Below, piece after piece: positions 3,254 to 62,868 of a stretch of 64,000 bases of DNA. The translations under genes and the position numbers were made by a program. Source of the stretch: an uncultured Oscillospiraceae bacterium (GTDB lineage Bacteria; Bacillota; Clostridia; Oscillospirales; Oscillospiraceae); assembly GCA_944385465.1 (NCBI GenBank), contig CALWXH010000002.1, positions 13,569-77,568 of the forward strand, read 5' to 3'. Every line of letters starts with the position of its first letter. The first letter of the stretch is position 1. Below the pieces are notes generated by a model. The model saw only the letters and a list, made by a program, of their open reading frames with translations, made no database searches and was not told the origin of the DNA.

Positions 3254-3384
3254 GAACAACACTCCTTTGCAGATCAAATTTTGTTGCGGCCCCTTCCGGA
3301 GGGCCACCACTCAAATGGTACCTGGGATTCAGGACCAAATACAAGAAGAACCTGCAAATTTGGAGCGAAATCGACAAAAAGCAG

Positions 3385-3420
3385 AAAAAGCGGGCCGGCG
3401 ATGGAACACATCGCCGGCCC
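3385..3420 (-). terminator. intrinsic terminator after the first hydrolase paralog
   Basis: GGGCCGGCGATG-TGTTC-CATCGCCGGCCC then CTTTTT on the minus strand. Confidence 0.75.
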
Positions 3421-3447
3421 GTTTGGGTGGATGGAAGGGGAGCTGGC

Positions 3448-4242: not shown

Positions 4243-4398
4243 AGGGACTACCTCGTTTCTTTTTAAGATACTTCTATCATACCGGAAAATTGGAAAAATG
4301 TAAATCAGAAAATTTGCAGGCAGATATGTTAAAACTGCATCATGGGATAAAAATCCCGCACCCGTCCCACGGGGAGACGGGTGCGGGAAACGTGCCGA

Positions 4399-5841
4399 TC
4401 AGTATGCCACGCCCCAGTACACCATGTGCTTGGCGGGTTTTCCGCAGCAGGCGCACACATCGCCCAGGTGCTCCTGCTCCAGGGGGATGCAGCGGGAGGA
4501 CACGCCGGCCACTTCCTTCATCTTCAGCTCGCAGGCCTCGTCGCCGCACCACATGGTCTTGGCGAAGCCGCCCCGCTGGGCCATCTTCTCCCGCACCTCT
4601 TCCATGGTGGCGCAGGGATAGGTGTTCTCCTCCAGGTTGCGCTTGGCCTTGTCATACAGGCCCTGCTGCACCTGCTCCAGCATGTCGGCCACGGTGGCCT
4701 CGATGTTGTCCAGGGAGACAAAGACCTTCTCGCCGTTGTCCCGGCGGACCAGCACGCACTGGTTTTTCTCCATGTCCTTGGGGCCCAGCTCCAGGCGCAG
4801 GGGCACGCCCTTCATCTCGTACTCGGCAAACTTCCAGCCGGGGGAGTTGTCCGAGGCGTCCATCTTCACCCGGATGCCCGCCTGCTTCAGCCGGGCCATG
4901 ACGGCCTCGTTGGCCTCCAGCACGCCGTCCTTGTGCTGGGCCACGGGGATGATTACCACCTGGATGGGGGCGATGCGGGGGGGCAGCACCAGGCCGTTGT
5001 TGTCGCCGTGGGTCATGATGACGCCGCCGATGAGCCGGGTGGACACGCCCCAGCTGGTCTGGAAGGGGTGGTGGGGCTGGTTGTCCTTACCGGCGAAGGT
5101 GATGTCAAAGGCACGGGCGAAGCCGTCCCCGAAATAGTGGCTGGTGCCGGCCTGCAGGGCCTTTTTGTCGTGCATCATGCACTCCACGGTGTAGGTGGCC
5201 TCGGCGCCGGAGAACTTCTCCTTGTCGGTCTTGCGGCCCTTCACCACCGGCATGGCCAGGTAGTTCTCGCAGAAGTCGGCGTAGATGTTGAACATCCGCA
5301 CCGTCTCCTCCATGGCCTCCTCAGCGGTGGCGTGCATGGTGTGGCCCTCCTGCCACAGGAATTCCCGGTGGCGCAGGAAGGGGCGGCTGGTCTTCTCCCA
5401 GCGCAGCACGGAGCACCACTGGTTGTACAGCTTGGGCAGGTCCCGGTGGGAGTGGATGATGTGGGCGTAGTGCTCGCAGAACAGGGTCTCGGAGGTGGGG
5501 CGGATGCAGTAGCGCTCCTCCAGCTTCTCGCTGCCGCCATAGGTCACCCAGGCGCACTCGGGGGCGAAGCCCTCCACGTGGTCCTTCTCCTTCTGGAGCA
5601 GGGATTCGGGGATGAGCATGGGCAGGTACACGTTCTCGTGCCCGGTCTCCTTGAACTTCTCGTCCAGGATCTTCTGGAAGTTCTCCCAGATGGCGTAGCC
5701 GTAGGGGCGCAGGATGAACATGCCCTTGATGGAGGAGTAGTCGATGAGCTCCGCCTTGCGGCACACGTCGGTAAACCACTGGGCGAAGTCAGCTTCCATA
5801 TCCGTGATCTGACTGACCTGTTTGTTTTTCTCTTGAGCCAT
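4399..5841 (-). CDS. proS: proline--tRNA ligase (archaeal/eukaryote-like short type)
   Basis: 480 aa. N-terminus [35 protein letters not shown], class II motifs and a C-terminal Zn-binding CxxC...CxxC tail ending in Y. Confidence 0.92.
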
Positions 5842-5923
5842 TGCAATTCATTCCTTCATAAAAGCCGGCCCGGCCTGCCCCCGACGGAGGGCGGACGGGC
5901 GGCCCGGATTTCTGTGAGCCTCT

Positions 5924-5952
5924 ATTTTATTGCCAAAAGCTTGGAAAGTCAA
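5924..5952 (-). promoter_or_regulatory. sigma-A type promoter for proS
   Basis: Minus strand TTGACT-17 nt-TAAAAT, about 80 nt upstream of the proS ATG. Confidence 0.55.
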
Positions 5953-5980
5953 GGGGAAGGGCGGATTTTGCCCGCCCGGG

Positions 5981-6637
5981 TCAGGCGTCGGCCTGGCTCT
6001 CCAGCCAGTGGGACACCGCCCGCTCCAGCCGGTCGGAATTGCCCACGATGGCGGCGCAGACTTCTTCCGCGTCCCCCTGCTCCACGCCCCGGCACATGTG
6101 CTCAAAATCCGCCAGGTTCGCCTGCGCGTCCATGCCCGCCTGGGCATAGAGCTGGCGCAGCAGCAGCTGCTGGCCCTGGATGGACAGCATGCTGCGGTCC
6201 AGACGGCGGTTCCCGCAGTGCAGGTAGAACACCTCGATGAGATGGTGGACGGCCTGCACCTGGGCCTGGGCGCCCTGGGCGGACTGGAATTCGCCAAGGC
6301 GGCGGCGCAGCTGGGCGGCCATGGCGGCGTGGTCGCCCCGCTCCATGGCCAGCCGGGCGGCGGCGCAGTGCAGGGTGGTGGCCAGCTGCTGGATCTCCTC
6401 CACGTCCTTGGGGGTGAGGGTGAGCACCCGGGCGCCCACATTGTTCTCGTAGGTGACCAGGCCCTCCTGCTGCAGGCGGTTGATGGCCTCCCGGATGGGG
6501 GTGCAGCTCACCCCCAGAATGTCCTGCAGCTCGTTGACATTGACCTTGCTGCCCAGGGGCAGGCGCAGGCTGACGATGTCGGCGCGCAGCCGCTCGTACA
6601 CCTGGTCCACCAGGGAGCGTTTCTTAATGGCGGCCAT
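5981..6637 (-). CDS. GntR-family regulator with FCD (FadR-type) C-terminal domain
   Basis: wHTH LPLGSKVNVNELQDILGVSCTPIREAINRLQQEGLV plus an all-helical C-terminal domain. Start at ATG 6637 (MAAIKKRS) behind GGAGGG. Confidence 0.85.
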   Translation of the reverse strand: MAAIKKRSLVDQVYERLRADIVSLRLPLGSKVNVNELQDILGVSCTPIREAINRLQQEGLVTYENNVGARVLTLTPKDVEEIQQLATTLHCAAARLAMERGDHAAMAAQLRRRLGEFQSAQGAQAQVQAVHHLIEVFYLHCGNRRLDRSMLSIQGQQLLLRQLYAQAGMDAQANLADFEHMCRGVEQGDAEEVCAAIVGNSDRLERAVSHWLESQADA

Positions 6638-6910
6638 AGGCAGCCCTCCAAATCTTGTTTCTTGCAATATGTAAGTTAACTATAGCAGATGCGGGGCGGG
6701 AATACAAGGGGGCGGGGGCAGATTTTGATACTTTGCCCGCCTCGTCGAATCTGACGGAACCGGCGGGGTTATTTTGTGGAAAATCCCATGGGAGCGGCGC
6801 TTGACTTTTGAGAGAAGTATGGTATTCTAAAGGTAGAAATCTTGCAAGATATATAATCTTGCCGCTGGATTCCCGGTCACTGCGTAACGATGGAAAGGAG
6901 AAGATTCCCC

Positions 6911-7822
6911 ATGGTCTACAAAACCTTTGACGAACTGATTGCCGCGGCCAAGAGCAAGCCGCACACCGCCCGCATGGCGGTGGCCGCCGCCGGCGACCCC
7001 CACACCATTGAGGCTGTGCTGAAAGCCCGGGAGGAGGGCATTGCCATCCCGGTGCTGGTGGGCGACAAGGCCGCCATTGACGATGCGCTGAAGCAGTTCG
7101 GCGCCACGGTGCCCGAAGAGGACATCTACGACGTGCCCGACCTGGCCGAGTCCGCCCGGAAGGCGGTCTCCCTGGTGGTGGAGGGCAAGGCCGACTTCCT
7201 GATGAAGGGCAAGCTGGATACCGCCATCCTCCTCAAGGCCGTGGTGAACAAGGAGTGCGGCCTGGGCCAGGGCCGCACCATGAGCCATTTCACCATGTTC
7301 CAGGTGCCCGGCTATCACAAGCTGATGGTGCCCGTGGACGGCGGCATGGTCACCTATCCCACCCTGGAGCAGAAGAAGGACATCATCGTGAACACGGTGG
7401 ACACCCTGCGGGCCATGGGCTATGACAACCCCAAGGTGGGCGTGCTGGCCTGCGTGGAGAAGGTCAACCCCAAGATGCCCGAGACCGTGGAGGCCAACGA
7501 GCTCAAGGAGATGAACCGGCGGGGCGAGATCACCGGCTGCGTGGTGGAGGGCCCCATCTCCTACGACTGCGCGGTGTCCAAGGAGATCGCCGACTTCAAG
7601 GGCTTCCAGAGCCCCTGCGCCGGGGACTGCGATGTGCTCATCGCCCCCAACATCCACGCCGGCAACATCATGGGCAAGATGCTGGCGGTGACCTGCGGGG
7701 CCAAGATGGCCGGCTTCATCGTGGGCGCCAAGTGCCCCATCGTCATGACCAGCCGCGGCTCCTCCCCCGAGGAGAAGTACCTGTCCATCGTCATCAGCGC
7801 GGTGGCGGCGGAGAAGAAATAA
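6911..7822 (+). CDS. ptb: phosphate butyryltransferase
   Basis: PTA_PTB family (AVAAAGDPHTIEAVLKAREEGIAIPVLVGD...) immediately upstream of butyrate kinase. ATG 6911 behind AAAGGAG. Confidence 0.85.
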   Translation: MVYKTFDELIAAAKSKPHTARMAVAAAGDPHTIEAVLKAREEGIAIPVLVGDKAAIDDALKQFGATVPEEDIYDVPDLAESARKAVSLVVEGKADFLMKGKLDTAILLKAVVNKECGLGQGRTMSHFTMFQVPGYHKLMVPVDGGMVTYPTLEQKKDIIVNTVDTLRAMGYDNPKVGVLACVEKVNPKMPETVEANELKEMNRRGEITGCVVEGPISYDCAVSKEIADFKGFQSPCAGDCDVLIAPNIHAGNIMGKMLAVTCGAKMAGFIVGAKCPIVMTSRGSSPEEKYLSIVISAVAAEKK

Positions 7823-7835
7823 GGAGGACTGACAC

Positions 7836-8915
7836 ATGGAACGTCTGCTGATTCTGAATCCCGGCTCCACCTCCACCAAGCTGGCCGTCTTTGACGGGGA
7901 GGAGCCCCTGTTTGTGGAGTCCATCGTCCACACCCCGGAGGAGCTGGCCCCCTTTGAGCATGTGGCCGAGCAGTACGGCTTCCGCCGGGACCTGGTGCTG
8001 GACTGCCTGAAGCGCCATGAGATCTCCCTGGACTCCCTGAGCGCCATCGTGTCCCGGGGCGGTCTGCTCACCGCCATTGAGGCGGGCGCCTATGAGGTCA
8101 ACGACGACATGATCTGGCAGCTGAAGAACAAGCCCCGCAACGAGCACGCCTCCAATGTGGGCGCCATGATCGCCCTGGACATCGGCCGCCAGCTGGGCAT
8201 TCCCGCCTACATCTACGACGGCGTCACCGTGGAGGAGCTGACCCCCATCAACAAGATCACCGGCCTGCCCTCTATGCAGCGCAAGGGCATGGGCCACAAC
8301 CTGAACACCCGGGCCGCCGCCATGCGCTATGCCCGGGAGCAGGGCAAGGGCTACAGCGACATCACCGTCATCGTGGCCCACCTGGGGGGCGGCATCTCGG
8401 TCAACCTCCATAACAAGGGCCGCATTGAGGACTTCATCAACGACGAGGAGGGCCCCTTCTCCCCGGAGCGCACCGGCGGCCTGCCCATGTTTGACGTCAT
8501 CGCCGACTGCTTCAAAGAGGGGATGACCTATCACGAGATGATGAAGACGGTGAAGACCCGGGGCGGCCTCATGGCCCATCTGGGCACCACCGACAGCCGG
8601 GAAGTGGAGAAGCGGATGAACGCCGGCGACGAGCACGCCAAGCTCATCTATGATGCCATGATCCTCAACATCGCCAAGAACATCGGCAAGCTGGCCCCCG
8701 GCGTGTGCGGCAAGGTGGACGCCATCCTGCTCACCGGCGGCATCGCCTACTCCGAGTACGTCACCAAGGGCATCGAATCCTATGTGTCCTGGATTGCCCC
8801 GGTGGTGGTGTACGCGGGGGAGGACGAGATGCGCTCCCTGGCCCTGGGCGGCCTGCGGGTGCTGCGCGGCGAGGAGAAGGCCAAGACCTATGTCAGCCCC
8901 GACCGGCCCCGATAA
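7836..8915 (+). CDS. buk: butyrate kinase
   Basis: MERLLILNPGSTSTKLAVFDGEEPLF N-terminus of the acetate/butyrate kinase family; 359 aa; AAGGAGG RBS. Confidence 0.9.
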   Translation: MERLLILNPGSTSTKLAVFDGEEPLFVESIVHTPEELAPFEHVAEQYGFRRDLVLDCLKRHEISLDSLSAIVSRGGLLTAIEAGAYEVNDDMIWQLKNKPRNEHASNVGAMIALDIGRQLGIPAYIYDGVTVEELTPINKITGLPSMQRKGMGHNLNTRAAAMRYAREQGKGYSDITVIVAHLGGGISVNLHNKGRIEDFINDEEGPFSPERTGGLPMFDVIADCFKEGMTYHEMMKTVKTRGGLMAHLGTTDSREVEKRMNAGDEHAKLIYDAMILNIAKNIGKLAPGVCGKVDAILLTGGIAYSEYVTKGIESYVSWIAPVVVYAGEDEMRSLALGGLRVLRGEEKAKTYVSPDRPR

Positions 8916-8936
8916 ATCAAACCGCATACCAAAAAC

Positions 8937-8975
8937 ATCCCCTGCCGGGTTTCCCGGCAGGGGATTCGATTTTTT
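8937..8975 (+). terminator. intrinsic terminator of ptb-buk
   Basis: ATCCCCTGCCGGG-TTTC-CCGGCAGGGGAT then TCGATTTTTT. Confidence 0.85.
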
Positions 8976-9028
8976 CAAAAAGCCCCGCAGCGTGCGCACC
9001 CGCAGGCGCGCATCAACCGGGCTTCTGG

Positions 9029-11800
9029 TTACAGCCCGGTGAGGATGGCCGCCCGGCTGCCGCCGGTCTTCTCCTTGGTCACCACGATCTGCCGCTGGAT
9101 CTGTTCCTTCAGCTCGGAGACGTGGGAGATGATGCCCACCAGCCGGTCGCTCTCAGCCAGGCTGGACAGGGCCTGCATGGCCTGCTGGAGGGAGTCCTCG
9201 TCCAGGGAGCCGAAGCCCTCGTCCACAAACATGCTCTCCAACCGGACGCCGCCGGCGCTGGCCTGGATCTCGTCGGACAGCCCCAGGGCCAGGGAGAGGG
9301 AGGCCAGGAAGGACTCCCCGCCGGACAGGGTCCGGACGCTGCGGGTGGTGCCGTTGTAGTGGTCGATGACCTCCAGGTCCAGGCCGCTCTGGCTCCTGTT
9401 GTTGTCCGCCTCCCGCCGGCGGCGCAGCTCGTACTGCCCGCCGGACATCACCAGGAAGCGGATGTTGGCCCGGCCGATGACCCGGTCGAAGTAGGCGGCC
9501 TGGATATAGGCCTCCAGCTGGATGTGCTGCTTTTCCCGGAGCGTGCCGTTGGCGGTGTCGGACAGGGCCTTGACCCAGCGGTAGGTCTCCTCCGCCGCGG
9601 CCAGGGCGGCCTGCTGGCGCTGAATGTTGTCCAGGGCGGCCTGGTTGCCGGACAGGCGGACGTGGAGCTCCTGCGCCTGGGCGGCCTGCCGGGCGCGCTG
9701 TTGGGTGAGGCGCGCCTTCTCCTCCAGCCAGGCGGCGGTGTCCGGGGCGGGCTGCCCCTTCAGCAGCTGCCGGGCCTGGGCGATCTGGGCCTGGAGGGCG
9801 GTGACCTGGCCCTGGATGTCGTCAACGCGGGCCTGCCGCCCGGCCAGGGCCTGCCGGAGGGCTTCGGCCTGGCTCTTCCGCTGGCGGATGGCCTGCTGGG
9901 CGGCCTGGCTGGTCTCGTAGGTCAGGGAGGCGGCCAGCGTGCCCAGGTGGGACTCCAGATCATTCCGGCGGGAGGCGCTGGCGGCCAGCTCCTTGTCCAG
10001 CTGCACGCAGCTGCGCTCCAAATCCGCGGCCCGGGCGCGCTCCCGGGGGATCAGCTCGTCCAGGGCGGCCTTTTCCTTCACCCCCCGCCGGGCCTGGGCC
10101 AGATCGTCAGATAGCAGCGTCAGGCCGGTGCGGGCGCGGGTGAGCTCCCGCTCCAGGGTCTGGGGCAGGGCGTCGGGGGACACGCCCGGCAGCAGCTCCT
10201 CCGCCTGGCGGGTCAGGGCGGCCAGCTTTTCCTCCAGGGCGCCCTGCCTGGCCCCGGCCTTGGCGCTGGCCGCGCTGGCGGCCTGGCGGGCCTGCTCCGC
10301 CGCCTTTCCGGCGCTGTCCAGCTGTGCCCTGGTGGGGGCGTGGGGGGATTTGCAGGCGGGCTTTGGATGGTCCAGAGCGCCGCACACCGGACAGGGGATG
10401 TTGTCCCGGAGGGTGTCGGCCAGGATGCCGGCCTGTTCATCCAGATAGGCCTGGTTCAGCCGGTCATAGGTGTGCTGGGCCTGGAGGGCGGCGGTGGATT
10501 TGGCCAGATAGTCCTGCTGGGCGGCCAGGACGTCCTGCTGAAGGGCCTGGAGCGCGCGCAGCTCTTCCTCCAGCGCCTTCAGGGCCTGCTGCCGCCGCAG
10601 AAGGTCGGCCTGCTCCGCCTCCAGCCGGGCCAGCTGTTCCCCGCAGTCCTTCAGGGCCTCCTGGCGTGTGCCCAGCTCGTCCAGGCCGGCCTGGATGGAG
10701 TTGAGCTCCCCGCTGTGCTCTTCCAGCTGCTCCCGCTGGGCCTCCATTTGGGTGAGCAGGCCGCTGTGGGCGCGGCGCAGCTCGTCCAGCCGGGCGTACT
10801 GGGGCAGCTGGGCCTGGATGGCGGCGGCAGCCGCGGTGAGCTCCTCGGCCCGGCCCTGCCCGGCCTGCTCTGCCGCCAGGACCTCTCTGGCCTGCTCCAG
10901 CTGGGGCAGGCAGAGGGTGAGCTGGCTCTGGGCACGCTGGAGGGCCTGCTGGGTGCGCTCCTGCTCCTGGGCCTGGACCAGCCGGGCGTTGAGGCCTTCC
11001 AGCGCCCGGTCTGTCTCCTGGATCTCACCCAGGCAGAGGTCCCGGGCCCGGGTGTCCGCCTGGAGCAGCCGGGTGAGCAGGGCCGGGGTTTCGGACAGGG
11101 GCAGCTGCCCCTCCTGAATCTGCCCCAGGTGGAGGGCCTCCGGGCTGTCCGGGGGGCACTGGATGCCGGAGATGTACTGGCGGATGCTGGCCGCGGCGGC
11201 CTCGAAGTCTGCCCGGAGCCGCCCGGCCTCCTCCTTCAGACGGTCCTGGAGCCGCTGATAGGGGCGGGTGTGGAACAGCTTCTGAAAAATTTTCCTGCGT
11301 TCCTCGGTGGGGGAGAGCAGCAGCTTGAGAAAGTCCCCCTGGGCGATCATGGCGATCTGGGTGAACTGGCCGCGGTCCATGCCCAGGATGTCCACAATGG
11401 CCCGGTTCACGTCGGTGAGTTTGGCGACCACCTTGCCGTCGGGGAGGTGCAGCTCCGCGCCGGCCTTCTCCGCGGTGAAGCCCTCCCCCCGGGCTTTGGG
11501 CCGCTGATATTCCGGGTTGCGCCGCACCCGGTATTCCTGGCTGCCGCTGCGGAAGGTGAGCTCCACAAAGGTGGGGGTGTCGGGCCGGGCGTATTTGGAG
11601 CGCAGCATGGACGCCTCCCGGTTTTCCCCGCTGGCTTCCCCGAACAGGGCGAAGGTGATGGCGTCAAAAATGGTGGTCTTGCCGGCGCCGGTGTCGCCGG
11701 TGATGAGATACAGCCCGCCGGACCCCAGCCGGGACAGCTCCAGCTCGGTCAGACCGGCATAGGGGCCGAAGGCGGACAGGACAAGCTTCAGCGGTCTCAT
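9029..11800 (-). CDS. sbcC: SbcC/Rad50-like DNA repair exonuclease ATPase subunit
   Basis: Walker A GDTGAGKTTIFDAITFALFG, a long Q/A/L coiled coil with zinc hook CPVCG, and a C-terminal LSGGESF signature with DEGFGSLD. Confidence 0.92.
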   Translation of the reverse strand: MRPLKLVLSAFGPYAGLTELELSRLGSGGLYLITGDTGAGKTTIFDAITFALFGEASGENREASMLRSKYARPDTPTFVELTFRSGSQEYRVRRNPEYQRPKARGEGFTAEKAGAELHLPDGKVVAKLTDVNRAIVDILGMDRGQFTQIAMIAQGDFLKLLLSPTEERRKIFQKLFHTRPYQRLQDRLKEEAGRLRADFEAAAASIRQYISGIQCPPDSPEALHLGQIQEGQLPLSETPALLTRLLQADTRARDLCLGEIQETDRALEGLNARLVQAQEQERTQQALQRAQSQLTLCLPQLEQAREVLAAEQAGQGRAEELTAAAAAIQAQLPQYARLDELRRAHSGLLTQMEAQREQLEEHSGELNSIQAGLDELGTRQEALKDCGEQLARLEAEQADLLRRQQALKALEEELRALQALQQDVLAAQQDYLAKSTAALQAQHTYDRLNQAYLDEQAGILADTLRDNIPCPVCGALDHPKPACKSPHAPTRAQLDSAGKAAEQARQAASAASAKAGARQGALEEKLAALTRQAEELLPGVSPDALPQTLERELTRARTGLTLLSDDLAQARRGVKEKAALDELIPRERARAADLERSCVQLDKELAASASRRNDLESHLGTLAASLTYETSQAAQQAIRQRKSQAEALRQALAGRQARVDDIQGQVTALQAQIAQARQLLKGQPAPDTAAWLEEKARLTQQRARQAAQAQELHVRLSGNQAALDNIQRQQAALAAAEETYRWVKALSDTANGTLREKQHIQLEAYIQAAYFDRVIGRANIRFLVMSGGQYELRRRREADNNRSQSGLDLEVIDHYNGTTRSVRTLSGGESFLASLSLALGLSDEIQASAGGVRLESMFVDEGFGSLDEDSLQQAMQALSSLAESDRLVGIISHVSELKEQIQRQIVVTKEKTGGSRAAILTGL

Positions 11801-12936
11801 GGCGTCTCCTCCCAGATCTGCTCCATCAGTCCCTGGACAAACCGGGCCTGCTCCGGGGACATGGGCTGATTGTTCTGCAGCTGGTAGAATTCCTCGAACA
11901 GCTCCAGGGGGCTGCGGCGCTCCGGGGCCGGGGCCCCGTCCAGGGCGGCGTGGCTGCGGGTGCGGGTGTTGTCATAGTCCAGCTTCATGAGGTTGTGGTA
12001 GATGGTCTGCAGGCGGCCCATGGCGTTGGGGATGTCCTCCTCGTCGGTGAGGGTGATGTGGACGTAGTCCTCCTGCCAGGAAGTGCCCTGATAAAAATCC
12101 CGGAGGGTGAGCTGCTGATAGGGGCCGCGCAGCTCCACCAGGTCCCGCAGCGGCCGGAGGGGGAGGGTGCGCAGGGTGAGCGCGCCCTTTTCCTCCAGCT
12201 GGACCACGGTGACGGACTTGTGGTGGCCGGCCTCGGAGAAGGAGTACTTCAGGGGGGTGCCGCAGTAGCGCACCCGCGCCGAGCCGATGTTCTGGGGGCC
12301 GTGGATGTGGCCCAGGGCCACATAGTCAAAGGGGGCGAACACCGAGACGTCCACATTGTCCAGCCCGCCCACGCTCACCTCCTCCGACTGGCAGCGCTGG
12401 GCGCCGGTGACAAACTGGTGGGCCACCAGGATGTTGCGGCGCTCCGGATTCACCTGCATCTGGGCGATTGCCACGCCCAGGGCGTCGGTATAGCTCTGGA
12501 TGTCCTCGTCGGGGAAATACCGGCGCACATGGGCGGGCTTGAGAAAGGGCAAAAGGTACAGATCCACCGGCCCGTGGGAATCCCACAGGGTGAAGGGGGT
12601 GATTGCCCCGCTGTACACCGGGGCGAGGTGAATGCCGCTGGTGTCCATCAGCCGCCCGCCGAAGGCCAGCCGCTCCGGGCTGTCGTGGTTGCCGCTGATG
12701 ACAAAGACCTGGGTGTCCAGCTGGGACAGCCGGAAGAGAAACTCGTCCAGCAGCTCCACTGCCTCGGCGGAGGGGACGGCCTTGTCGTAGATGTCGCCGG
12801 CCAGCAGCACGCCGTCGGGGCGTTCCGCCTGGACGGCGGAGAGGATCTGCCGGAGGATGTGCCGCTGATCCTCCAGCATGGAAAAGCCGTTGACCCGTTT
12901 TCCCAGGTGCAAGTCAGACAGGTGGATGAATTTCAT
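11797..12936 (-). CDS. sbcD: SbcD/Mre11-like nuclease subunit
   Basis: MKFIHLSDLHLGK, GDIYD and GNHD calcineurin-like phosphoesterase motifs. Its stop overlaps the sbcC start (ATGA). Start at 12936 behind GAGGAGG. Confidence 0.92.
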   Translation of the reverse strand: MKFIHLSDLHLGKRVNGFSMLEDQRHILRQILSAVQAERPDGVLLAGDIYDKAVPSAEAVELLDEFLFRLSQLDTQVFVISGNHDSPERLAFGGRLMDTSGIHLAPVYSGAITPFTLWDSHGPVDLYLLPFLKPAHVRRYFPDEDIQSYTDALGVAIAQMQVNPERRNILVAHQFVTGAQRCQSEEVSVGGLDNVDVSVFAPFDYVALGHIHGPQNIGSARVRYCGTPLKYSFSEAGHHKSVTVVQLEEKGALTLRTLPLRPLRDLVELRGPYQQLTLRDFYQGTSWQEDYVHITLTDEEDIPNAMGRLQTIYHNLMKLDYDNTRTRSHAALDGAPAPERRSPLELFEEFYQLQNNQPMSPEQARFVQGLMEQIWEETP

Positions 12937-39925: not shown

Positions 39926-41338
39926 TTGAACCGAACCACCCCTGTGATTCCCCAGGAAGAGATCGCCCGGCAGCGGGCGTACTGCGCCGAAATCCGCGCC
40001 CTCAACGCCCGGCTGGAGCGCGCCCCTGCCGCCTATGTGGACACCTACGGCTGCCAGCAGAACGAGGCGGACTCGGAGCTGCTGCGGGGCATGCTGGCCG
40101 AGATGGGCTATGAGATCGTGGATACGGACCGGGACGCCGATGTGATCGTCATCAACACCTGCGCCATCCGGGAGCACGCCGAGCAGCGGGTGCTGGGCAA
40201 TGTGGGCGCTCTGGTCCACGGCAAGCGGCGCAAGCCGGAGCAGATCATCTGCCTGTGCGGCTGCATGGCCCGGGAGCAGCACGTGGCGGACAAGCTGCGC
40301 CAGTCCTACCGCCATGTGGATCTGGTGTTTGGCCCCCAGGTGCTCTGGCGCTTTCCCGAGCTGCTGCGCCGGGTGATCACCCGCCGGGGCCGGGTGTTTG
40401 AGACGGGGGACGTGCCCGGGGCCATCGCCGAGGGCCTGCCGGTGCGCCGCTCGGGCAGGGTGAAGGCCTGGGTGTCCATCATGTACGGGTGCAACAACTT
40501 CTGCACCTACTGCATCGTCCCCTACGTCCGGGGGCGGGAGCGCAGCCGGGAGCCGGAGGCCATCCTGGCGGAGATCCGCCAGCTGGTGGAGGAGGGCTAT
40601 AAGGACATCACCCTGCTGGGCCAGAACGTGAACTCCTACGGCAAGGACCTGGGGGAGGGCGTGGACTTCCCCGACCTGCTGGAGCGGGCGGCGGCCATCC
40701 CCGGGGACTTTCTGCTGCGCTTCATGACCAGCCACCCCAAGGACGCCACCGAGAAGCTCTTTGACGTGATGGCCCGGTGCGAGAAGGTGGCCCCGGTGAT
40801 CCATCTGCCCTTCCAGTCGGGCAACAGCCGGGTGCTGTCGGCCATGAACCGCCGGTACACCCGGGAGCAGTACCTGGAGAAGGTGCGGGCCCTGCGGGCG
40901 CGCATCCCGGATGTGGTGCTCACCAGCGACGTGATCGTGGGCTTCCCCGGGGAGACCACGGAGGAGTTTGAGGACACCCTGTCCCTCATCCAGGAGGTGC
41001 GCTTTGACGCGCTGTTCACCTTCATCTACTCCCCCCGGAAGGGCACCCCGGCGGCGCAGCTGCCTGACCCCATGTCCAAGGAGGAGAAGTCGGCCAACTT
41101 CGACCGGCTGGTGGAGGAGCAGAACCGCATCTCCCTGGAGAAGCATCAGGCGTACATCGGCACGGTGCAGCGCTGCCTGGTGGACGGGCTCAGCGACGAC
41201 CCCCGGAACAATCTGAACGCCCGCACCCCCGGCGGGCGGCTGGTCCACCTCAGCGGCGACCCCGCCCTGGTGGGGCAGTTCGTGGACGTGGAGATCGTGG
41301 ACTGCTCCACCTGGGCGCTGTTTGGCGAGAAGCGCTGA
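39926..41338 (+). CDS. miaB: tRNA-2-methylthio-N6-dimethylallyladenosine synthase
   Basis: UPF0004 domain YVDTYGCQQNEADSE, radical SAM cluster CNNFCTYC and C-terminal TRAM domain. TTG start 7 nt after GGAGGGA. Confidence 0.9.
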   Translation: MNRTTPVIPQEEIARQRAYCAEIRALNARLERAPAAYVDTYGCQQNEADSELLRGMLAEMGYEIVDTDRDADVIVINTCAIREHAEQRVLGNVGALVHGKRRKPEQIICLCGCMAREQHVADKLRQSYRHVDLVFGPQVLWRFPELLRRVITRRGRVFETGDVPGAIAEGLPVRRSGRVKAWVSIMYGCNNFCTYCIVPYVRGRERSREPEAILAEIRQLVEEGYKDITLLGQNVNSYGKDLGEGVDFPDLLERAAAIPGDFLLRFMTSHPKDATEKLFDVMARCEKVAPVIHLPFQSGNSRVLSAMNRRYTREQYLEKVRALRARIPDVVLTSDVIVGFPGETTEEFEDTLSLIQEVRFDALFTFIYSPRKGTPAAQLPDPMSKEEKSANFDRLVEEQNRISLEKHQAYIGTVQRCLVDGLSDDPRNNLNARTPGGRLVHLSGDPALVGQFVDVEIVDCSTWALFGEKR

Positions 41339-42300
41339 GCCGTTGCGAGCAGCCCGGATGGACCGGAGCGAGGGCGAGCGGAGGGCCGCGCAGCGGCCCG
41401 CAGACCAGCCCGAGTCGAAGGGAAGCCGGGCGTCGCGAGCAGGCGAGGCGTGACACCAGAGAAGCGCTGAGCCAAGGATTCCGCCGCCTGCGGGCGGCGG
41501 GCGCTCCGCTGGGGGGCTTCCCTTTCGCCGGAGGGTTCCGGAAAATCTTTCAACTTGTCGGGTCCCGCCCCGACAGGCGGGGTACTTTCTCTTGCGCAAG
41601 AGAAAGTACCCAAAGAGTGCGCATAGGGGGCGAACCCCCTATGTACCCCCTGTTCAGTAGACCTGCCAACATCTCTTTCCGGCGTGCGTGACCCGCGGCT
41701 GCGCCGGTTCCATCGACGGCCTCCGGCCTGCTGCGTCCGTATGCTTTGGTGCCTGCGGCCCAGGTGACACGCCTCCACTGGCAGGGCCCTTCGGTGCCTG
41801 CGCCGTTAGAGGTGCAGGCTCGCAGGCTTGAACACCAAGAGCAGGCGCCCATAGGCGGGGAACGGGGTGACAAGTCACCTGCGCAAAAGGCCGGGGGCCG
41901 CCGTGCGTGGCAGGGAGTGTCAGCAGGAGGACGCCGGTCGTTAGAGTGACGCACCAATTCTGCTCTCCCGCTTTGGGGCCCCCGCCGAAACCCAGCGTCA
42001 GCGGTTTCGGTGGGGAGAGGACGAGCAAGGAAGCGAAGCGCAGTTTTCGCCGCCCTTGGGCGGAAACGAAGCTAAGCGGACTTTGCGAGGACGAGGGGGT
42101 TCTTAGGGAGAAAAATCCTGGAGGACGCCCTTTGTCCGATGGATTTGTCCCCCTAAGCGGGCTTTTGCCTACTTTTCTCCCGCGAGAAAAGTAGGTCGCC
42201 CTCAGGCGAAACCTGAGACGCGCCCGCCGGTGCGGGAACCGGCAAAAGTCCGGGGCTCCGGGGGCAGCGCCCCCAGGGCCAAAGAAAGCGCAGAGCCGCG
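41339..42300. repeat. mosaic intergenic repeat cluster L1 (modules C+, E+, core+, D+, B+, A+)
   Basis: About 960 bp without credible coding. It shares long blocks with 46157..47006 and 62018..62868 (see findings for module coordinates). Confidence 0.85.
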
Positions 42301-46156: not shown

Positions 46157-47006
46157 GTGTGATTCCTCCTTGTAATATGAGAAGTGAACATTACGAGTTG
46201 TGGTGAGATTTGGCCGTTGTTTGGGGCGGGGGCCAGGCCTCTGCTCAGGTTTCGGCCCCGTCCGAAAGGAACCAAAGGGCAGGGGATTCCGCCGCCTGCG
46301 GGCGGCGGGACGCTCCGCTGGGGTGACTTTTCTCACGCAAGAAAAGTCACCAAAAGTGCGCCCAAGGGGGAGCGCCCCCTTGGGTATCCCCCCGCTCAGT
46401 TGCACTGCGTCTTTCTCTTTCCGGCGTCCTGGACCCGCGGTTGCGCCGGTTCCCCCGACGGCCTCCGGCCTCCTGAATCCGGATGCTTCGGCTGCCGCAC
46501 CCCACCAGGGCGCCTGGCCGGGCGGGGCCCTTCGGCGTGTGCGCCGTTAGGGGAGCAGACCCGCAGGCTTGAACACCAAGACCAGGCGCCCGTAGGCGGC
46601 GCAGAAGATTGCAGGGCAAAACAGCAAAAGGCCAGGGGCCGCCGTGCGTCGCCGAGGGTGTCAGCAGATGTGCGCCGGTCGTTAGAGTGACGCACCGATT
46701 CTACTCCCCCGTAAAACGGGGGTTCTTAGGGGGCCAAATCCTGGAGGACGTCCTTTGTCCGATGGATTTGTCCCTCTAAGCGCGTCTTTGCCTACTTTCT
46801 GCGCGTGCAGAAAGTAGGTCGCCCCTCCGGGCGAAACCGGGGCCGGGCTGTTCGCGACGGCTCAGACGTTTCTGGGATCACGCTTCGCCTGCTCACGACG
46901 CCCGGCTTCCCGACCACTCGGACTGGTCTGCGGGCCGCTGTGCGGCCCTTCGCTCGTCCTCGCGACCGTCCATCCGGGCTGTTCGCGGCGGCTCAGACGC
47001 TTCTGA
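46157..47006. repeat. mosaic intergenic repeat cluster L2 (E+, core+, B+, A+, C-)
   Basis: An 850-bp non-coding gap inside the Moco gene cluster. It is collinear with L1 over the core, B and A modules, and module C is inverted. Confidence 0.85.
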
Positions 47007-48477: not shown

Positions 48478-48946
48478 GGGTGAACACCCCCGATTTTCCG
48501 CCCTCTTTCCGCATGAGGCGCACGTTGGTGATGGTCATGGCCCGGTCCAGGGCCTTGCACATGTCATAGATGGTGAGCAGGGCGGCGGATACGCCGGTGA
48601 GGGCCTCCATCTCCACCCCGGTGTTGCCGGTGATCTTCACGGTGCAGGCGGCCTCCACCCGGCCCTCCTCCGGAAACAGGTCAAAGTCCACCGAGCAGCC
48701 GGACACCGCCAGCGGGTGGCACATGGGGATGAGGTCGCTGGTGCGCTTCACCGCCATGATGCCCGCCACCCGGGCCACCCCCAGCACGTCGCCCTTTTTG
48801 GCGGTGCCGGTCTGGATGGCGGTCATCACCGCCCCGTTCACGTGGATTTCCCCCCGGGCCACCGCCAGGCGCTGGGTGGGGGCCTTGTCCGTCACGTCCA
48901 CCATGATGGCCTTGCCCTGGGCGTCAAAATGATTCAGTCCGTTCAT
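48467..48946 (-). CDS. moaC: cyclic pyranopterin monophosphate synthase
   Basis: MVDVTDK...[31 protein letters not shown]. Confidence 0.92.
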
Positions 48947-49152
48947 AACAGCACCGCCTTTACCATGGTTCCGGCCTCCAGGGCCGGGGAGCCCGCCGGG
49001 ATGTCCACCAGGCAGTTACAGCCGCCCCACCCGGCCCAGGCCGGGCGGGGACCCCCGAGGATGACAAAATCGCGGGGGCCAAATGAATTGCCTCCCGCTC
49101 CGCGCCAAAAGGCGCGCCGCCTGCCGGCGGTGGGTGGGCTGCACCTGCTCAT
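48943..49152 (-). pseudogene. duplicated moeA 3' fragment fused to a 125-bp insert (69-codon ORF)
   Basis: The last 25 codons ([25 protein letters not shown]) repeat the MoeA C-terminus. The 81-bp copies 48943-49023 and 49149-49229 match at 78/81 positions. Confidence 0.75.
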
Positions 49153-50354
49153 AGCAGCACCGCCTTTACCATCGTTCCGGCCTCCAGGGCCGGGGAGCCC
49201 GCCGGGATGTCCACCAGGCAGTTGCAGCCCACCTGGGAGCGCAGCTGGCCGGAGGAGTGGCCGTCGGGCAGGGAGATGGAGCCGTCCCGGAGGACGCCCC
49301 GGACAAACCGCCGTCCGCCGCTGGCCTTGGGGAAGGGGGTGGCCAGAGGGGCGGACAGGCGGACCGGCTGCCAGTGGGGCTGGCCCTCCAGGGCCGATAG
49401 CAGGGAGCGGCCCAGCAGCTCAAAGGTGGCCGCGGCGGCAAAGGGGTTGCCGGACAGGGACAGTACCGGCTTGCCCTGGATCAGGGAGAACATCAGCGGG
49501 GTGCCGGGTTTGAGCTGGACCCGCCAGAACAGCCGCTGGGCGTCCGCCAGGGGCAGGGCCTGGTGGAAAATGTCCTTATCCCCCACTGACACGCCGCCGG
49601 TGGTGATGACGCAGTCAAACAGTCCGGCGCTCTCGCTCAGTGCCTCGGCCACGGCGCGGGGGTCGTCCGGCCACCAGGCGGTGGCCGCCTCCAGTCCCAG
49701 CTGCCGGCACCGGGCGGCCAGCTGGGGCAGGTTGGAGTTGTAGATCTGGCCGGGGCGCAGGGTGTCCCCCGGCTGGGCCAGCTCGTCGCCGGTGCCGGCC
49801 AGCAGCACCTTGGGCCGGGGGTGGGCGGACAGGGGGGTCTCCCACAGCCCGGCGCTGGCCAGCACCCCCAGGGCGACGCTGTCCATCCGGGTGCCGGCGG
49901 GGAACAGCAGGCTGCCGTTTTGAAAGTCCTCCCCCGCGAAGCAGTAGTTCTCGTGGGGGGCCAGGGCGCGGAAGATGCCCACCCGGGGGTGGGCGCGGTC
50001 AGTGTCCTCCTGGCGGATCACGCAGTCGGCGCCGGGGGGGATGGGTGCCCCGGTCATGATCCGGGCGCACTGGCCGGGGTTCAGCGGAATCTGGGGCCAG
50101 TCCCCGGCGCAGAGGGTCTCCCGCACCTCCAGGAGAACGGGGTGGTCCGGGCTGGCGCCCAGGCTGTCCTCAGCCCGCAGGGCATAGCCGTCCAGGGGGG
50201 AGCGGTCAAAGGGGGGCTGGTCCATGGGGGCGATGACGTCCTGGGCCAGGACGTGGTCCTGCAGCCAGTTTCCCGCCAGCTCCACCGGAGGCAGGGGGGC
50301 GGTGTGCAGCCGGATGAGCTCCAGCGCCCGCTCCAGGGTGATGCCGGTCTCCAT
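49149..50354 (-). CDS. moeA: molybdopterin molybdenumtransferase
   Basis: METGITLERALELI...PFDRSPLDGYA...TTGGVSVGDKD. Start at ATG 50354 behind GGAAGGAGGGG. The longer ORF 49149..50678 overlaps the upstream gene. Confidence 0.9.
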   Translation of the reverse strand: METGITLERALELIRLHTAPLPPVELAGNWLQDHVLAQDVIAPMDQPPFDRSPLDGYALRAEDSLGASPDHPVLLEVRETLCAGDWPQIPLNPGQCARIMTGAPIPPGADCVIRQEDTDRAHPRVGIFRALAPHENYCFAGEDFQNGSLLFPAGTRMDSVALGVLASAGLWETPLSAHPRPKVLLAGTGDELAQPGDTLRPGQIYNSNLPQLAARCRQLGLEAATAWWPDDPRAVAEALSESAGLFDCVITTGGVSVGDKDIFHQALPLADAQRLFWRVQLKPGTPLMFSLIQGKPVLSLSGNPFAAAATFELLGRSLLSALEGQPHWQPVRLSAPLATPFPKASGGRRFVRGVLRDGSISLPDGHSSGQLRSQVGCNCLVDIPAGSPALEAGTMVKAVLL

Positions 50355-51404: not shown

Positions 51405-51565
51405 ACAAAAGCGGCCCTGTCCCCAAGGGACAAGGCCGCCAGAATCCATATGCTCCGACAAACGCCTGACCCTTTTCAACAAGGAAGGCGGCGCCGTTTC
51501 CCGCGCCACCCCGGCCCGGAGGCCATAGCGGATGCCTTAGGCCGGCGGGCTCGGATCAATTGGTG
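51405..51565 (-). promoter_or_regulatory. probable molybdenum-cofactor (Moco) riboswitch with terminator expression platform
   Basis: The minus strand contains GAUCCGAGCC...GGCCUCCGGGCC...GAAAAGG, blocks recalled from the Moco RNA motif. The terminator GGCCTTGTCCC-TTGG-GGACAGGGCC+GCTTTT follows (about 51413..51437), directly upstream of Moco genes. Confidence 0.6.
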
Positions 51566-51570
51566 TTACC

Positions 51571-61891: not shown

Positions 61892-62017
61892 ATGCGCAGC
61901 TCCTCTCCGCGTTTCAGCGCGTTGAATGTATTAACCGTGTTGGTACAGTTAATATATCACGGAAACAATAAGAAAGGAAGGGGGAAATCTTAAAGAATGT
62001 CTTAAGACTTTTGAAAG

Positions 62018-62868
62018 CAAACCCCGGGGCGCCCCGCCCGGGGTTCGCCCGGAAGGGCGACCTACTTTCGCCGGAAAGTTCCGGCAAACCCTATGGCTTG
62101 TCGGGTCCCGCCCCGACAGGCGGGGGACTTTCTCTTGCACCAGAGAAAGTACCCAAAGAGCGTGTCCAGGGGGAGGGCCCCCTGGATACCCCCCCACTCA
62201 GTTGGGGTGCGCCCTTCTCTTTCCGGCGTCCTGAACCCGCGGTTGCCCAGCTTCCCCCGACGCCCTCCGGGCTCGTGCGTACGTATGCTTCGGCTGTCGC
62301 ACTCCAATGGGCCGCCTGGCTGGGCAGGGGCCTCCGGCGTGGCGCACCGTTAGAGGTGCAGCCCCGCAGGCTTGAATACCAAATACAGGCGCCCATAGGC
62401 GTGGGACAAGGTGACAGGTCACCTGCGCAAAAGGCCGGAGGCCGCCTTGCGTCGCTGAGGGTGTCAGCAGGCGTGCGCCGGTAAGAGGACACCGCGCCAG
62501 TTTTACTCTTCCGTAAAATGGGGGTTCTTAGGGGGTGGGCCGACTGTGAGCGAGGCCCCGCACTTGGGGGCCGAAGTCGAACCGGAGGCCGACCCCCTAA
62601 GCCGCCCTTTGGTTCCTTTCGGGCGGTGCCGAAAGGAACTCGCCCTCAGGCGAAACCTCGTCGTCGCAAAGTCCGCTTAACTTCGTTTCCGCCCAAGAGC
62701 GGCGAAAACTGCGCTTCACTTCCTTGCTCCTCCTCTCCCCACCGAACCCGCTTCGCTGGGCTTCGGCGGGGACCCCGAATGCCTGCCGGGACGAGACCCG
62801 GCAAACTTTAGGATTTGCCGGCACCCTCCGGCGAACGAAACGGGGGAACAGGGGACTCTGCCCCCGCC
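62018..62868. repeat. mosaic intergenic repeat cluster L3 (A-, core+, B'+, D-)
   Basis: An 850-bp non-coding gap. The core is collinear with L1 and L2, while modules A and D are inverted relative to L1. Confidence 0.85.

Follow-up and report, generated by a model that had tools for sequence, protein, structure and literature searches.

Several kinds of repeat are known from the intergenic regions of bacteria. The REP/BIME repeats of enterobacteria are short palindromes in alternating orientation, combined with other conserved motifs in mosaic extragenic clusters. The clusters are found after genes and within operons, and REPINs come with RAYT (Y1) transposases. BIME-1 has a central motif with an IHF site between inverted palindromes, and the loops of REP/BIME palindromes are insertion targets of IS1397/ISKpn1 and IS621. 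Bacterial MITEs include the Correia elements, RUP, and Nezha, and some of them are nested; in a selfish MITE the termini are expected to be the most conserved part. The BOX elements of Streptococcus pneumoniae consist of boxA, boxB, and boxC in direct arrangement. PATE/HEARO elements are derived from IS200/IS605 and have subterminal hairpins without terminal inverted repeats (TIRs), an omega RNA, and TnpA/TnpB or IscB nearby.

The repeats described here are found in a 64,000-nucleotide stretch of a contig from an uncultured Oscillospiraceae bacterium (the window). Their distribution and variation suggest, with a probability of roughly 60%, that they are a repeat family of the MITE/REP-BIME kind, lineage-specific, non-coding, and non-autonomous, in an uncultured species of gut Oscillospiraceae. 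An earlier note had described three copies of a conserved core at 41558-41955, 46324-46696, and 62099-62495, all on the + strand, and the coordinates are correct. The hairpins and nearly invariant blocks that it listed are present as written, and the genes next to them are on the + strand at locus 1 and on the - strand at loci 2 and 3. All three copies are intergenic and lie in long gaps. They are diverged, with a mean column identity of 76%, and a 27-nt pattern from the conserved centre has exactly three matches in the window, compared with none in 100 shuffles. The similarity is real, but it runs on beyond these coordinates into islands of shared modules. Each copy is the innermost part of an intergenic island of 0.8-1 kb that is made up of nested inverted repeats. 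Two hairpins, hp1 and hp2, had been taken as parts of the core; they are present, but they belong to a module, M, of which every copy has an inverted counterpart on its 3' side (42096-42197, 46718-46818, and 62520-62640). The features of the three islands are as follows, with M-L and M-R for the left and right M modules.

Locus 1, + strand: neighbours are a miaB-like radical-SAM gene, then mreD-like/PBP2
41328-41341 and 41460-41473: 14-bp direct repeats of the G unit; 41328-41341 is the last codons and stop of the miaB-like ORF
41342-41459, + strand: G unit at the left edge of island 1, with the exact 14-bp direct repeat AGAAGCGCTGAGCC on both sides
41478-41582, + strand: left modules of island 1, A (the hairpin CCGCCGCC-TGCG-GGCGGCGG, common to copy 2) and B (a double hairpin with the end GTCGGGTCCCGCCCCGACAGGCGGGG, common to copy 3)
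41580-41650, + strand: M-L of copy 1, with hp1 at 41583-41608, hp2 at 41622-41643, and an ACCCCC run
41651-41970, + strand: central core of copy 1, with outer arms CTCTTTCCGGCG... and ...CGCCGG; its conserved centre holds CCGTTAGAGG, AGGCTTGAACACC, AGGCGCCCATAGGCG, and GCAAAAGGCCGGGGGCCGCCGTGCGT
41971-42095, + strand: nested E repeat at the 3' end of copy 1, in the loop of a CCCCCG-TAAAC-CGGGGG hairpin
42096-42213, + strand: M-R of copy 1 (inverted M-L), with GGGG TTC, hp2' at 42102-42157 with a 22-nt insert, and hp1' at 42168-42195
42196-42213, + strand: F hairpin of island 1, directly after M-R of copy 1
Locus 2, - strand: neighbours are MOSC and moaA, inside a moa operon
46208-46321, + strand: left modules of island 2, an F-like hairpin and an A module
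46322-46393, + strand: M-L of copy 2, with hp1 at 46322-46351, hp2 at 46361-46384, and the C-run at 46388-46393
46394-46717, + strand: central core of copy 2, with the end ...CTCCCCCGTAAAAC
46718-46850, + strand: M-R and F hairpin of copy 2, with GGGGGTT, hp2' at 46725-46780, and hp1' at 46791-46818
46843-46874 and 46974-47005: 32-bp direct repeats of the second G-unit copy
46859-47004, - strand: second G unit in inverted orientation, with 85% identity to 41328-41473, adjoining the moaA stop
Locus 3, - strand: neighbours are an ABC ATPase and a PALP enzyme
62017-62125, + strand: left modules of island 3, an F-like hairpin and the B module
62067-62121, + strand: B module of island 3, the left arm of a 55-nt inverted repeat
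62123-62195, + strand: M-L of copy 3, with hp1 at 62127-62150, hp2 at 62165-62186, and the C-run
62196-62519, + strand: central core of copy 3
62520-62657, + strand: M-R and F hairpin of copy 3, with hp2' at 62527-62601 with a 45-nt insert and hp1' at 62612-62639
62656-62779, - strand: inverted E repeat of island 3
62781-62835, - strand: B' module, the right arm of the 55-nt inverted repeat and the outer edge of island 3

The layers of the islands, from the outside to the inside, are as follows: outer modules (G, A, B, and F), M on the left with its mirror image on the right, the core TIR, 60-nt arms, and the centre. On the left, M is two perfect hairpins followed by ACCCCC, and on the right it is GGGGGT followed by two hairpins. 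The core TIR is about 25 nt and imperfect (TACGGGGG.G.CAG.A.C.GTGCC / GGCAC.GAT.CTG.TCCCCCGTA). The L082b, L001, and L086 types from other strains show it clearly, and in the window copies it is 5'-truncated; the inverted M modules lie outside it. Inside the TIR are the imperfect inverted arms and then a centre of about 150-190 nt. The core is about 320-340 nt in length, or about 490 nt with the M modules. Inverted symmetry is also seen at other levels. The arms of the 55-nt inverted repeat in island 3 (62067-62121 and 62781-62835) are 80% complementary, and in nhmmer searches the core weakly matches its own reverse complement over its full length. The hp1 stems come in at least 12 different forms, 8-12 bp long and without exception perfectly Watson-Crick paired, and hp2, A, B, and F are further hairpin-forming palindromes. 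The loop of hp2 is 4 nt or contains inserts of about 22-38 nt or 45-57 nt. No relevant tandem repeats were found. The segment 41328-41473 was considered as a duplicated fragment of the miaB gene and rejected; it codes over just 11 nt and forms a repeat unit in its own right, with direct repeats of 14 bp.

The islands resemble REP/BIME clusters in consisting of hairpin-forming palindromes and in being mosaic, extragenic, and of alternating orientation, with insertions in loops. They differ in having a centre of about 320 nt rather than tens of nt and in lacking a conserved GTAG head on the hairpins, since GTAG is present in some hp1 variants only. In addition, the host belongs to the Clostridia, and cassette replacement and inversion at the same locus are prominent. 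The window ORFs that were examined include no RAYT, and none is known for the source organism. The unit is like a MITE in being small (less than about 600 bp), non-coding, dispersed, and intergenic, with imperfect TIRs, high folding potential, nesting, and presence/absence of some units (E and G). In contrast to MITEs, the unit is always at the centre of a larger palindrome, and neither a target-site duplication at the core nor a parent IS whose ends match was found. Its interior is also more conserved than its termini, which is the opposite of what is expected for a selfish MITE and suggests some function. BOX elements are likewise modular intergenic repeats of a Firmicute with stable predicted structure and a module composition that varies by locus, but they have no sequence similarity to the islands, which have multilayer inverted repeats and a 190-nt conserved centre. 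Unlike PATE/HEARO elements, the islands have TIRs, no TnpA/TnpB or IscB is beside any of the at least eight loci, and there is no HEARO match. Literature searches on Clostridiales-2, MITEs in Oscillospiraceae, and REPIN/RAYT in Firmicutes found nothing useful.

The core is dispersed and appears specific to one lineage. It is found at a minimum of eight loci with unrelated flanks: the three in the window, an opp-like locus (L001), a YpsA locus, a DpaB-CorA locus, and two loci in L115. In the closest species representative (L002, with 77% amino-acid identity in PBP2) the orthologous gaps lack it, and it is also missing from 79 other relatives. Pattern scans gave no matches in genomes, one in metagenomes, and none in viral contigs, the last with three patterns. 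Plasmid and phage databases contain no match to the core; only the E module is matched, at 77-79%, by two fecal "Bacteriophage sp." records that are unannotated. ARAGORN predicted no tRNA or tmRNA, so an origin from either is unsupported.

The same loci vary greatly between strains. The comparison included 15 distinct variants from other strains at eight or more loci. On strain contigs that share a locus, the flanks are 98-100% identical, while the cores are only 67-86% identical, with sharp boundaries between the two. Identical alleles recur across independent samples and studies, and one allele is from a "tig" contig, a name suggesting a long-read assembly. The core had been described as always on the + strand; this holds for the source strain, but in other strains it is inverted at locus 2 (L088/L109) and locus 3 (L094 and L101). 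The junctions of the inverted cores are ACCCCC| and |GGGGGT, which are the inner ends of the inverted repeats. The inverted alleles (L088 and L094) are 72-78% identical to any forward allele, and none of them is a simple flip. L082b is a mosaic whose left part is like L001 and whose right part is identical to L104. Islands at different loci have exact stretches of up to 91 nt in common; these are in the flanking modules, extending at most to the first bases of the core, and never in the conserved centre.

Nested units and outer modules also differ between strains. Presence/absence polymorphism is found for both the E and the G units: the E repeat at the 3' end of copy 1 is absent from L082 and L084, and the interior of the inverted second G-unit copy is missing from the long-read contig L104. 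In L115, the conserved centre is broken up by two insertions, one E-like and the other a different repeat of 120 nt. Other modules take the place of the left block of island 2 (46208-46321) in L082 and L088. At the DpaB-CorA locus the innermost cassette is swapped, and a diverged paralog there has lost the invariant blocks. At the inner inverted repeat, L083 is either internally inverted or chimeric; a flank is rearranged in L085, and the B' module (62781-62835) is the breakpoint of a flank rearrangement in L112. All of the comparison contigs are metagenome assemblies, and chimera formation at repeats could account for some of the flank rearrangements. None of the strain contigs compared showed a clean empty site for the core. 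L101 was considered as one and rejected, as its sequence is an E unit followed by an inverted core.

Because strains flip, swap, and interrupt the repeat, it behaves like repeat or mobile DNA and not like a demonstrated RNA gene. The repeat-element reading is supported by the dispersed loci, the nested and terminal inverted repeats, the differences in orientation and allele, and the nested small repeats. The islands may have grown as palindromic units inserted into the hairpin loops or palindrome centres of earlier units. Present turnover would then occur by homologous recombination and gene conversion, with the shared modules as homology arms. Since each arm is an inverted copy of the other, a donor could go in either way round. 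Such exchange would yield cassette replacement, inversions, and mosaics without target-site duplications. A core-free M-M palindrome would read …CTAAGAACCCCC GGGGGTTCTTAG…. The hairpins probably keep pairing because they are DNA palindromes, and not because of a strand-specific RNA fold. They may be kept as recognition or structure elements at the level of DNA or ssDNA, or by correction within the palindrome.

The core itself may be mobile. With no target-site duplication and no clean empty site, this suggestion is based on dispersal and on the polymorphism of orientation and alleles. The core junctions (ACCCCC| and |GGGGGT) are inverted and not direct repeats, and direct repeats were found only at the separate G unit. 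No cognate transposase or recombinase for the core was found near the loci. An IS30-like transposase beside the L114 copy was considered as a partner and rejected, as the low-GC foreign DNA to which it belongs begins beyond the edge of the island.

No reading frame is conserved across the copies, as the earlier note had stated, and the core is non-coding. The variable columns have no 3-periodicity (0.66/0.53/0.54), there are stops in all frames in most of 13 variants, and the longest stop-free translations have no Pfam match. Minus-strand ORFs of 99-135 aa are partly in the same frame in the core. They were rejected as Arg/Pro/Ala-rich read-through of GC-rich DNA; they have stops in copy 2, no periodicity, and no Pfam match.

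The earlier note had also proposed a structured RNA as an alternative to a non-autonomous element, and the tests that were run support the element and not the RNA. According to the RNA proposal, the centre or the whole core is a structured ncRNA gene (an sRNA, a ribozyme, or a bridge/omega-type guide RNA) that is carried as cargo. Its variable-length hairpins would be expansion segments, and its invariant blocks a functional single-stranded or tertiary core. The blocks are indeed invariant across 13-14 variants and lie between variable hairpins, the core is non-coding, and its folding z-score is -4.8. Pairing is retained in 94.9% of cells, compared with 91.8% in shuffles (0/500), and slid controls are also exceeded. 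Nine of 56 pairs are changed on both sides, compared with 3.7 in shuffles, although this is also expected for DNA palindromes and related sequences; the pair 86-94 changes from G-C to C-G in 5 of 15 sequences. The compensatory changes are real; they are mainly in perfectly Watson-Crick DNA palindromes, which are equally expected for hairpins or inverted repeats at the DNA level. The covariation in the core is marginal. The RNAalifold covariation terms are near zero, with values of -0.07, -0.16, and -0.87 on the + strand and +1.09 on the - strand, and the two strands fold equally well (consensus energies of -69 kcal/mol for + and -71 kcal/mol for -).

The core also lacks the signals and relatives of an RNA gene. 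No sigma-70-type promoter was found in it, and terminator-like sites in the islands are no more common than in shuffles. A sigma-54 promoter (CTGGCACCGATTCTGCT) at the 3' end was dropped, because the essential GG varies among variants. No Rfam family was found for the copies, in agreement with the earlier note, which could not place them in a familiar RNA family. A scan of the window at gathering thresholds matched only a Moco riboswitch elsewhere, and permissive scans (E<=10) of the three loci and three strain contigs gave noise and one sub-threshold match to the candidate sRNA Clostridiales-2 (RF02937). This match, at 62513-62639, has 19.6 bits compared with a gathering score of 58.6, and it is in a flanking module rather than the core. 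In it, the 3' end of the copy 3 core and M-R align to the whole 82-nt model, with UAAAAU-GGGGGU, a stem of xxxGGGG...CCCCxxx, and G.CGAA.GGAAC as the aligned elements. However, the match is found in only one of the three copies and in no other modules or strains, and the loop is 58 nt instead of 4. No motif, model match, or neighbouring gene supports a group II intron, a bridge RNA, or an omega RNA. The 33 spurious ORFs that overlap the copies have no Pfam domains, and no associated protein gene was found. The orientation of the core relative to genes and flanking modules differs between strains, the conserved blocks are interrupted in some copies, and they are missing in the DpaB-CorA paralog. 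A structured RNA gene is therefore unlikely.

For the conserved centre, the most likely role is that of a sequence-specific module for binding or recombination within the repeat family. A functional RNA or protein-binding role for these approximately 190 nt is doubtful. It is rather improbable that the centre (CCGTTAGRGG ... AGGCTTGAACACC ... AGGCGCCCATAGGCG ... GCAAAAGGCCGGGGGCCGCCGTGCGT) is a trans-acting guide or bridge-type RNA or a recombinase recognition site that steers cassette insertion or exchange at ACCCCC^GGGGGT. If it does steer cassettes into the M palindrome, gut Clostridia would have a new mobile system that targets hairpins and swaps cassettes, and the islands would be more than repeat DNA in decay.

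The islands could also be REP/BIME-like elements that have been domesticated by the host, with hairpins that act on transcripts or chromosome structure. Examples are the stabilization of mRNA 3' ends, transcription termination or insulation, and the binding of nucleoid proteins or gyrase. This proposal overlaps with a repeat family, as it concerns the benefit to the host and not the origin of the islands. It is suggested by the extragenic location, downstream of stop codons and terminators as well as within the moa operon, by the mosaic architecture as in BIMEs, and by GC-rich hairpins followed by T-rich arms, which are on both strands and face inward. On the other hand, the terminator-like sites do not exceed shuffles, and strains freely replace, invert, and interrupt the islands. 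Domestication is quite unlikely on this evidence.

An inverton is very unlikely. A site-specific recombinase would flip the segment between the inverted M modules and thereby alter the expression of neighbouring genes. As in the invertons of gut bacteria, inverted repeats bound the core, and natural populations carry it in either orientation at one and the same locus. Its junctions coincide exactly with the inner repeat ends, and the window encodes a tyrosine recombinase (2159-3310). However, the recombinase is 40 kb from the islands and linked to none of them, and no linked invertase was found. The two orientations differ in sequence, and no sigma-70-type promoter was found inside the core. 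Instead of short recombinase sites, the inverted repeats are composite hairpin modules 70-110 nt long. The islands are also between convergent or co-directional genes of unrelated function, with one inside the moa operon. Finally, it is very improbable that the islands are static relics of old segmental duplications, immobile, functionless, and neutrally diverging: the lack of a target-site duplication, transposase, or clean empty site, the G unit as neighbouring sequence common to islands 1 and 2, and the 60-86% identity of the copies, which are thus not young, would fit, but this reading is largely contradicted by same-locus cores that neutral point mutation cannot produce between nearly identical flanks, by orientation differences and mosaics between strains, by exact 50-91-nt stretches common to different loci, by invariant blocks amid 25-40% divergence, and by nested E and G units that are present or absent between strains.

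Two features deserve the attention of specialists: a centre of unusually high conservation, and cassettes that are cleanly replaced while the flanks stay identical. If the repeat-family reading is true, the islands represent an undescribed family of nested palindromic intergenic repeats in an uncultured gut Oscillospiraceae. They would then be a caution that a hairpin with compensatory changes is not, on that ground alone, an RNA. Most contigs of the source species end in these islands, which would break metagenome assemblies. They would also mark hotspots of rearrangement and strain variation beside housekeeping genes.

The window contains three copies of a repeat core of about 320-340 nt. 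The three copies described in the earlier note were recovered, as were all of the hairpins and invariant blocks listed there. In a three-way alignment the copies have a mean column identity of 76% with few indels, and a repeat finder returns the same families. A 27-nt pattern from the conserved centre has exactly three matches in the window and none in 100 shuffles. Every copy sits in an unusually long intergenic gap, in a genome that is otherwise tightly packed (65-70% GC).

Core copies in the window and their gene settings
41558-41955 (+): copy 1, locus 1, between a miaB-like radical-SAM gene and mreD-like/PBP2 genes; flanking genes on the plus strand
46324-46696 (+): copy 2, locus 2, flanked by MOSC/MoCF genes and moaA within a molybdenum-cofactor operon on the minus strand
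62099-62495 (+): copy 3, locus 3, between genes for an ABC ATPase and a PLP enzyme; flanking genes on the minus strand

Other features were seen in the window. A Moco riboswitch (51456-51568, minus strand; 64 bits, gathering score 36) lies upstream of molybdenum-related minus-strand genes, and the neighboring operon, moaC-mobB-moaA-MOSC-MoCF, contains island 2. An 81-nt direct repeat (48943-49023 and 49149-49229; 96% identical, spacing 206 nt) is apparently located where two small, adjacent minus-strand genes end, downstream of the moa genes. A tyrosine recombinase with Phage_integrase and SAM-like N-terminal domains (2159-3310, minus strand) adjoins a gap of about 900 bp (1265-2159) and has no linkage to any island.

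Every island, taken as a whole, consists of nested palindromes. The core does not stand alone as a unit: hairpins 1 and 2 of the earlier note belong to a mirrored module, M. The left module (M-L) consists of hp1 (…CTTTC…GAAAG…), hp2 (C.TAGGGGG…CCCCCTA.G) and an ACCCCC run. The right module (M-R) is its mirror image, GGGGGT followed by hp2' and hp1', and is found 3' of each core.

42096-42197: M-R of copy 1
46718-46818: M-R of copy 2
62520-62640: M-R of copy 3

Outside M are small hairpin modules (A, B, F, G and E), which are shared as a mosaic and often mirrored again; island 3 is bracketed by a 55-nt inverted repeat (62067-62121 / 62781-62835). Inside M, the core ends carry a terminal inverted repeat, imperfect and about 25 nt long, followed inward by inverted arms of about 60 nt, likewise imperfect (CTCTTTCCGGCGTCC… / …GGACGCCGGAAAGAG), and an inner inverted repeat (GGGCGCCTGG / CCAGGCGCCC) surrounding the centre, which is more conserved than the ends. 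Because inverted repeats nest at every level, the core profile weakly matches its own reverse complement over its entire length.

The repeat family is dispersed to at least eight loci and appears to be restricted to a single species-level lineage. A search for exact matches to the conserved-centre pattern found none among 185,579 species-representative genomes, none in viral contigs, and one in the metagenome collection, where the core occupies a fourth locus, flanked by oligopeptide-type ABC transporter genes (contig L001). The window was assigned to Oscillospiraceae by its PBP2 protein, for which the closest representative, L002, has 77% amino-acid identity and the next 52%. The core is absent from all 80 related loci examined; in L002 the short orthologous gaps contain only E, a different small repeat. 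A search of a metagenomic protein collection with the translated core returned 33 spurious, domain-less ORFs called over further copies, and their contigs contribute four more loci, bringing the family to at least eight. No description of it was found in the searchable literature.

Loci added from spurious-ORF contigs
YpsA locus: one copy
DpaB-CorA locus: a paralog, about 60% identical
Phage terminase genes (contig L115): two flanking copies

Between identical flanks, cores are replaced, inverted and mosaic. Contigs encoding identical MreD-like, ABC and MOSC proteins made the three loci available from about 30 further metagenome assemblies. In sliding-window comparisons the flanks have 98-100% nucleotide identity versus 67-86% for the core at the same locus; alignments likewise show identity falling sharply at the core and recovering on the far side. 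The alternative alleles are not assembly noise, as the same allele recurs in up to six samples; recurrence spans different studies and assemblers, and one allele is from a 'tig' contig, a name that suggests long-read assembly. The alleles are mosaics of each other and of copies elsewhere. Different loci have exact stretches of 45-91 nt in common; these stretches consist of flanking-module sequence and at most the first core bases, with none in the conserved centre. All three window copies are on the plus strand as reported, but this orientation is not constant in other strains: locus 2 carries an inverted core in L088/L109, as does locus 3 in L094 and L101, with junctions exactly at ACCCCC| and |GGGGGT. 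Contig L083 has a partial inversion with its breakpoint at the inner inverted repeat.

Genes beyond the island edge differ in several contigs, with breakpoints at island edges (e.g. window 62835). These changes are either real, repeat-mediated rearrangements or metagenome mis-joins or chimeras at repeats.

L083: upstream neighbor PhoU/PHO4
L085: upstream neighbor GNAT
L112, 9008: PTA_PTB in place of the PALP gene of window 62869

Most metagenome contigs of the species end inside islands (L086-L091, L093-L101, L105-L111), so the repeats account for much of the fragmentation of its assemblies.

Other small units have inserted into the hairpin loops of the element.

Small units and swapped segments
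41971-42095 (+) and 62656-62779 (-): E repeat, about 124 nt, in the window
9315-9480 and 12440-12640: E repeat in L002
41328-41473: G unit in the window
46843-47005: second, inverted copy of G
10235-10390 in L116/L118, 10235-10300 in L117: innermost segment of the DpaB-CorA locus

Window copy 1 holds E in its terminal hairpin loop, where two other strains (L082 and L084) lack it. E also occurs in another species (L002), and two unannotated fecal 'Bacteriophage sp.' records (MT839225, MT839899) contain it at 77-79% identity; it is a separate, mobile-looking small unit. In L115 the conserved centres of the two cores flanking the terminase genes are interrupted (1299-1419 and 3819-3937), one by a 120-nt unit that has a terminal inverted repeat of its own (GCCTCATCCG…CGGATGAGGC) and the other by an E-like unit, possibly with a duplication of some 9 nt (GSCGCCTGG). 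Some hp2 loops are 4 nt long; others carry inserts of roughly 22-38 nt or 45-57 nt. The DpaB-CorA locus differs among three strains in its innermost segment, which lies between GGGCGCCT and AGGCGCCC and measures 65 nt in one of them and 145 nt in the other two, with identical surroundings in all three, a cassette swap within the innermost level of nesting. G has an insert of about 118 nt (41342-41459) between exact 14-bp direct repeats (AGAAGCGCTGAGCC), the first of which supplies the miaB-like ORF with its final codons and stop. Its inverted copy adjoins the moaA stop, with flanks CAGAAGCGTCTGAGCC / CAGAAACGTCTGAGCC. Contig L104 lacks the 99-bp G interior and retains one repeat, and the same miaB stop in the related species L002 carries an inserted E-like repeat.

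On contig L114, low-GC foreign DNA (2806-12636) encoding an IS30-like transposase (HTH_38 + rve) and an HTH regulator begins directly at an island edge. This foreign DNA also carries, within a prophage-like region, a diversity-generating retroelement signature (RVT_1 + bAvd).

The evidence speaks against the view that each copy is a strand-specific RNA gene. The element is outside every Rfam family: none matches any copy even at E<=10, except for a sub-threshold Clostridiales-2 match (19.6 bits, gathering score 58.6) that spans the last bases of copy 3 and M-R, outside the core proper, and this sequence likeness of M-R is a lead only. Single sequences fold far more stably than shuffles on both strands (z = -4.8 and -3.7). 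For 10-15 distinct variants, RNAalifold consensus energies are -69 (+) and -71 (-) kcal/mol, with covariation terms of -0.07, -0.16 and -0.87 on the plus strand and +1.09 on the minus strand. Pair counting in a 15-sequence alignment gave 94.9% paired cells versus 91.8% in shuffles and nine pairs changed on both sides versus 3.7 (0/500), with double-sided changes confined to 17 of 836 cells; the structure was derived from the same 15 sequences, and relatedness alone can beat shuffles without structure. The single pair that clearly covaries lies in the GGCC/GCCC-TCC hairpin listed in the earlier note. At least 12 sequence variants of hp1 are all perfect Watson-Crick palindromes without G-U, which is the look of DNA palindromes. 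No sigma-70-type promoter or tRNA-like gene was found in the element, terminator-like sites are no more frequent than in shuffles, and no coding signal was detected, in agreement with the reported lack of a conserved reading frame. Given these results, the variable orientation and the interrupted copies, a cargo RNA gene is unlikely, even with the stable folds and the covarying pair.

On the best-supported reading, these repeats form a non-autonomous palindromic family of the MITE / REP-BIME kind that is specific to one lineage. Of the two possibilities offered by the earlier note, structured RNA or non-autonomous element, the second is favored by a dispersed, nested and polymorphic repeat; the strand-specific RNA gene is not. 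The islands may have been assembled by successive insertions into palindrome centres, and present-day turnover would occur via homologous recombination or gene conversion with the shared modules as arms. Such exchange would account for installation in either orientation, sharp boundaries within modules and the lack of target-site duplications. The element works like BIMEs and nested MITEs, but no target-site duplication like that of MITEs was found for the core, the GTAG head of REPs is not conserved and occurs in some hp1 variants only, no RAYT was found among the window ORFs examined, and no parent IS is known for it. A REP-like host function, which is compatible with the palindromic repeat family, is unlikely and somewhat less probable than the RNA gene. 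An inverton would fit the exact inversion junctions, but none of the inverted alleles is a plain flip of a forward one, and this explanation is very improbable. Static duplicates are just as improbable given the allele differences between strains. The conserved centre may be functional, and the family would gain in significance only if that centre turned out to be an RNA with a function or a site of recombination.
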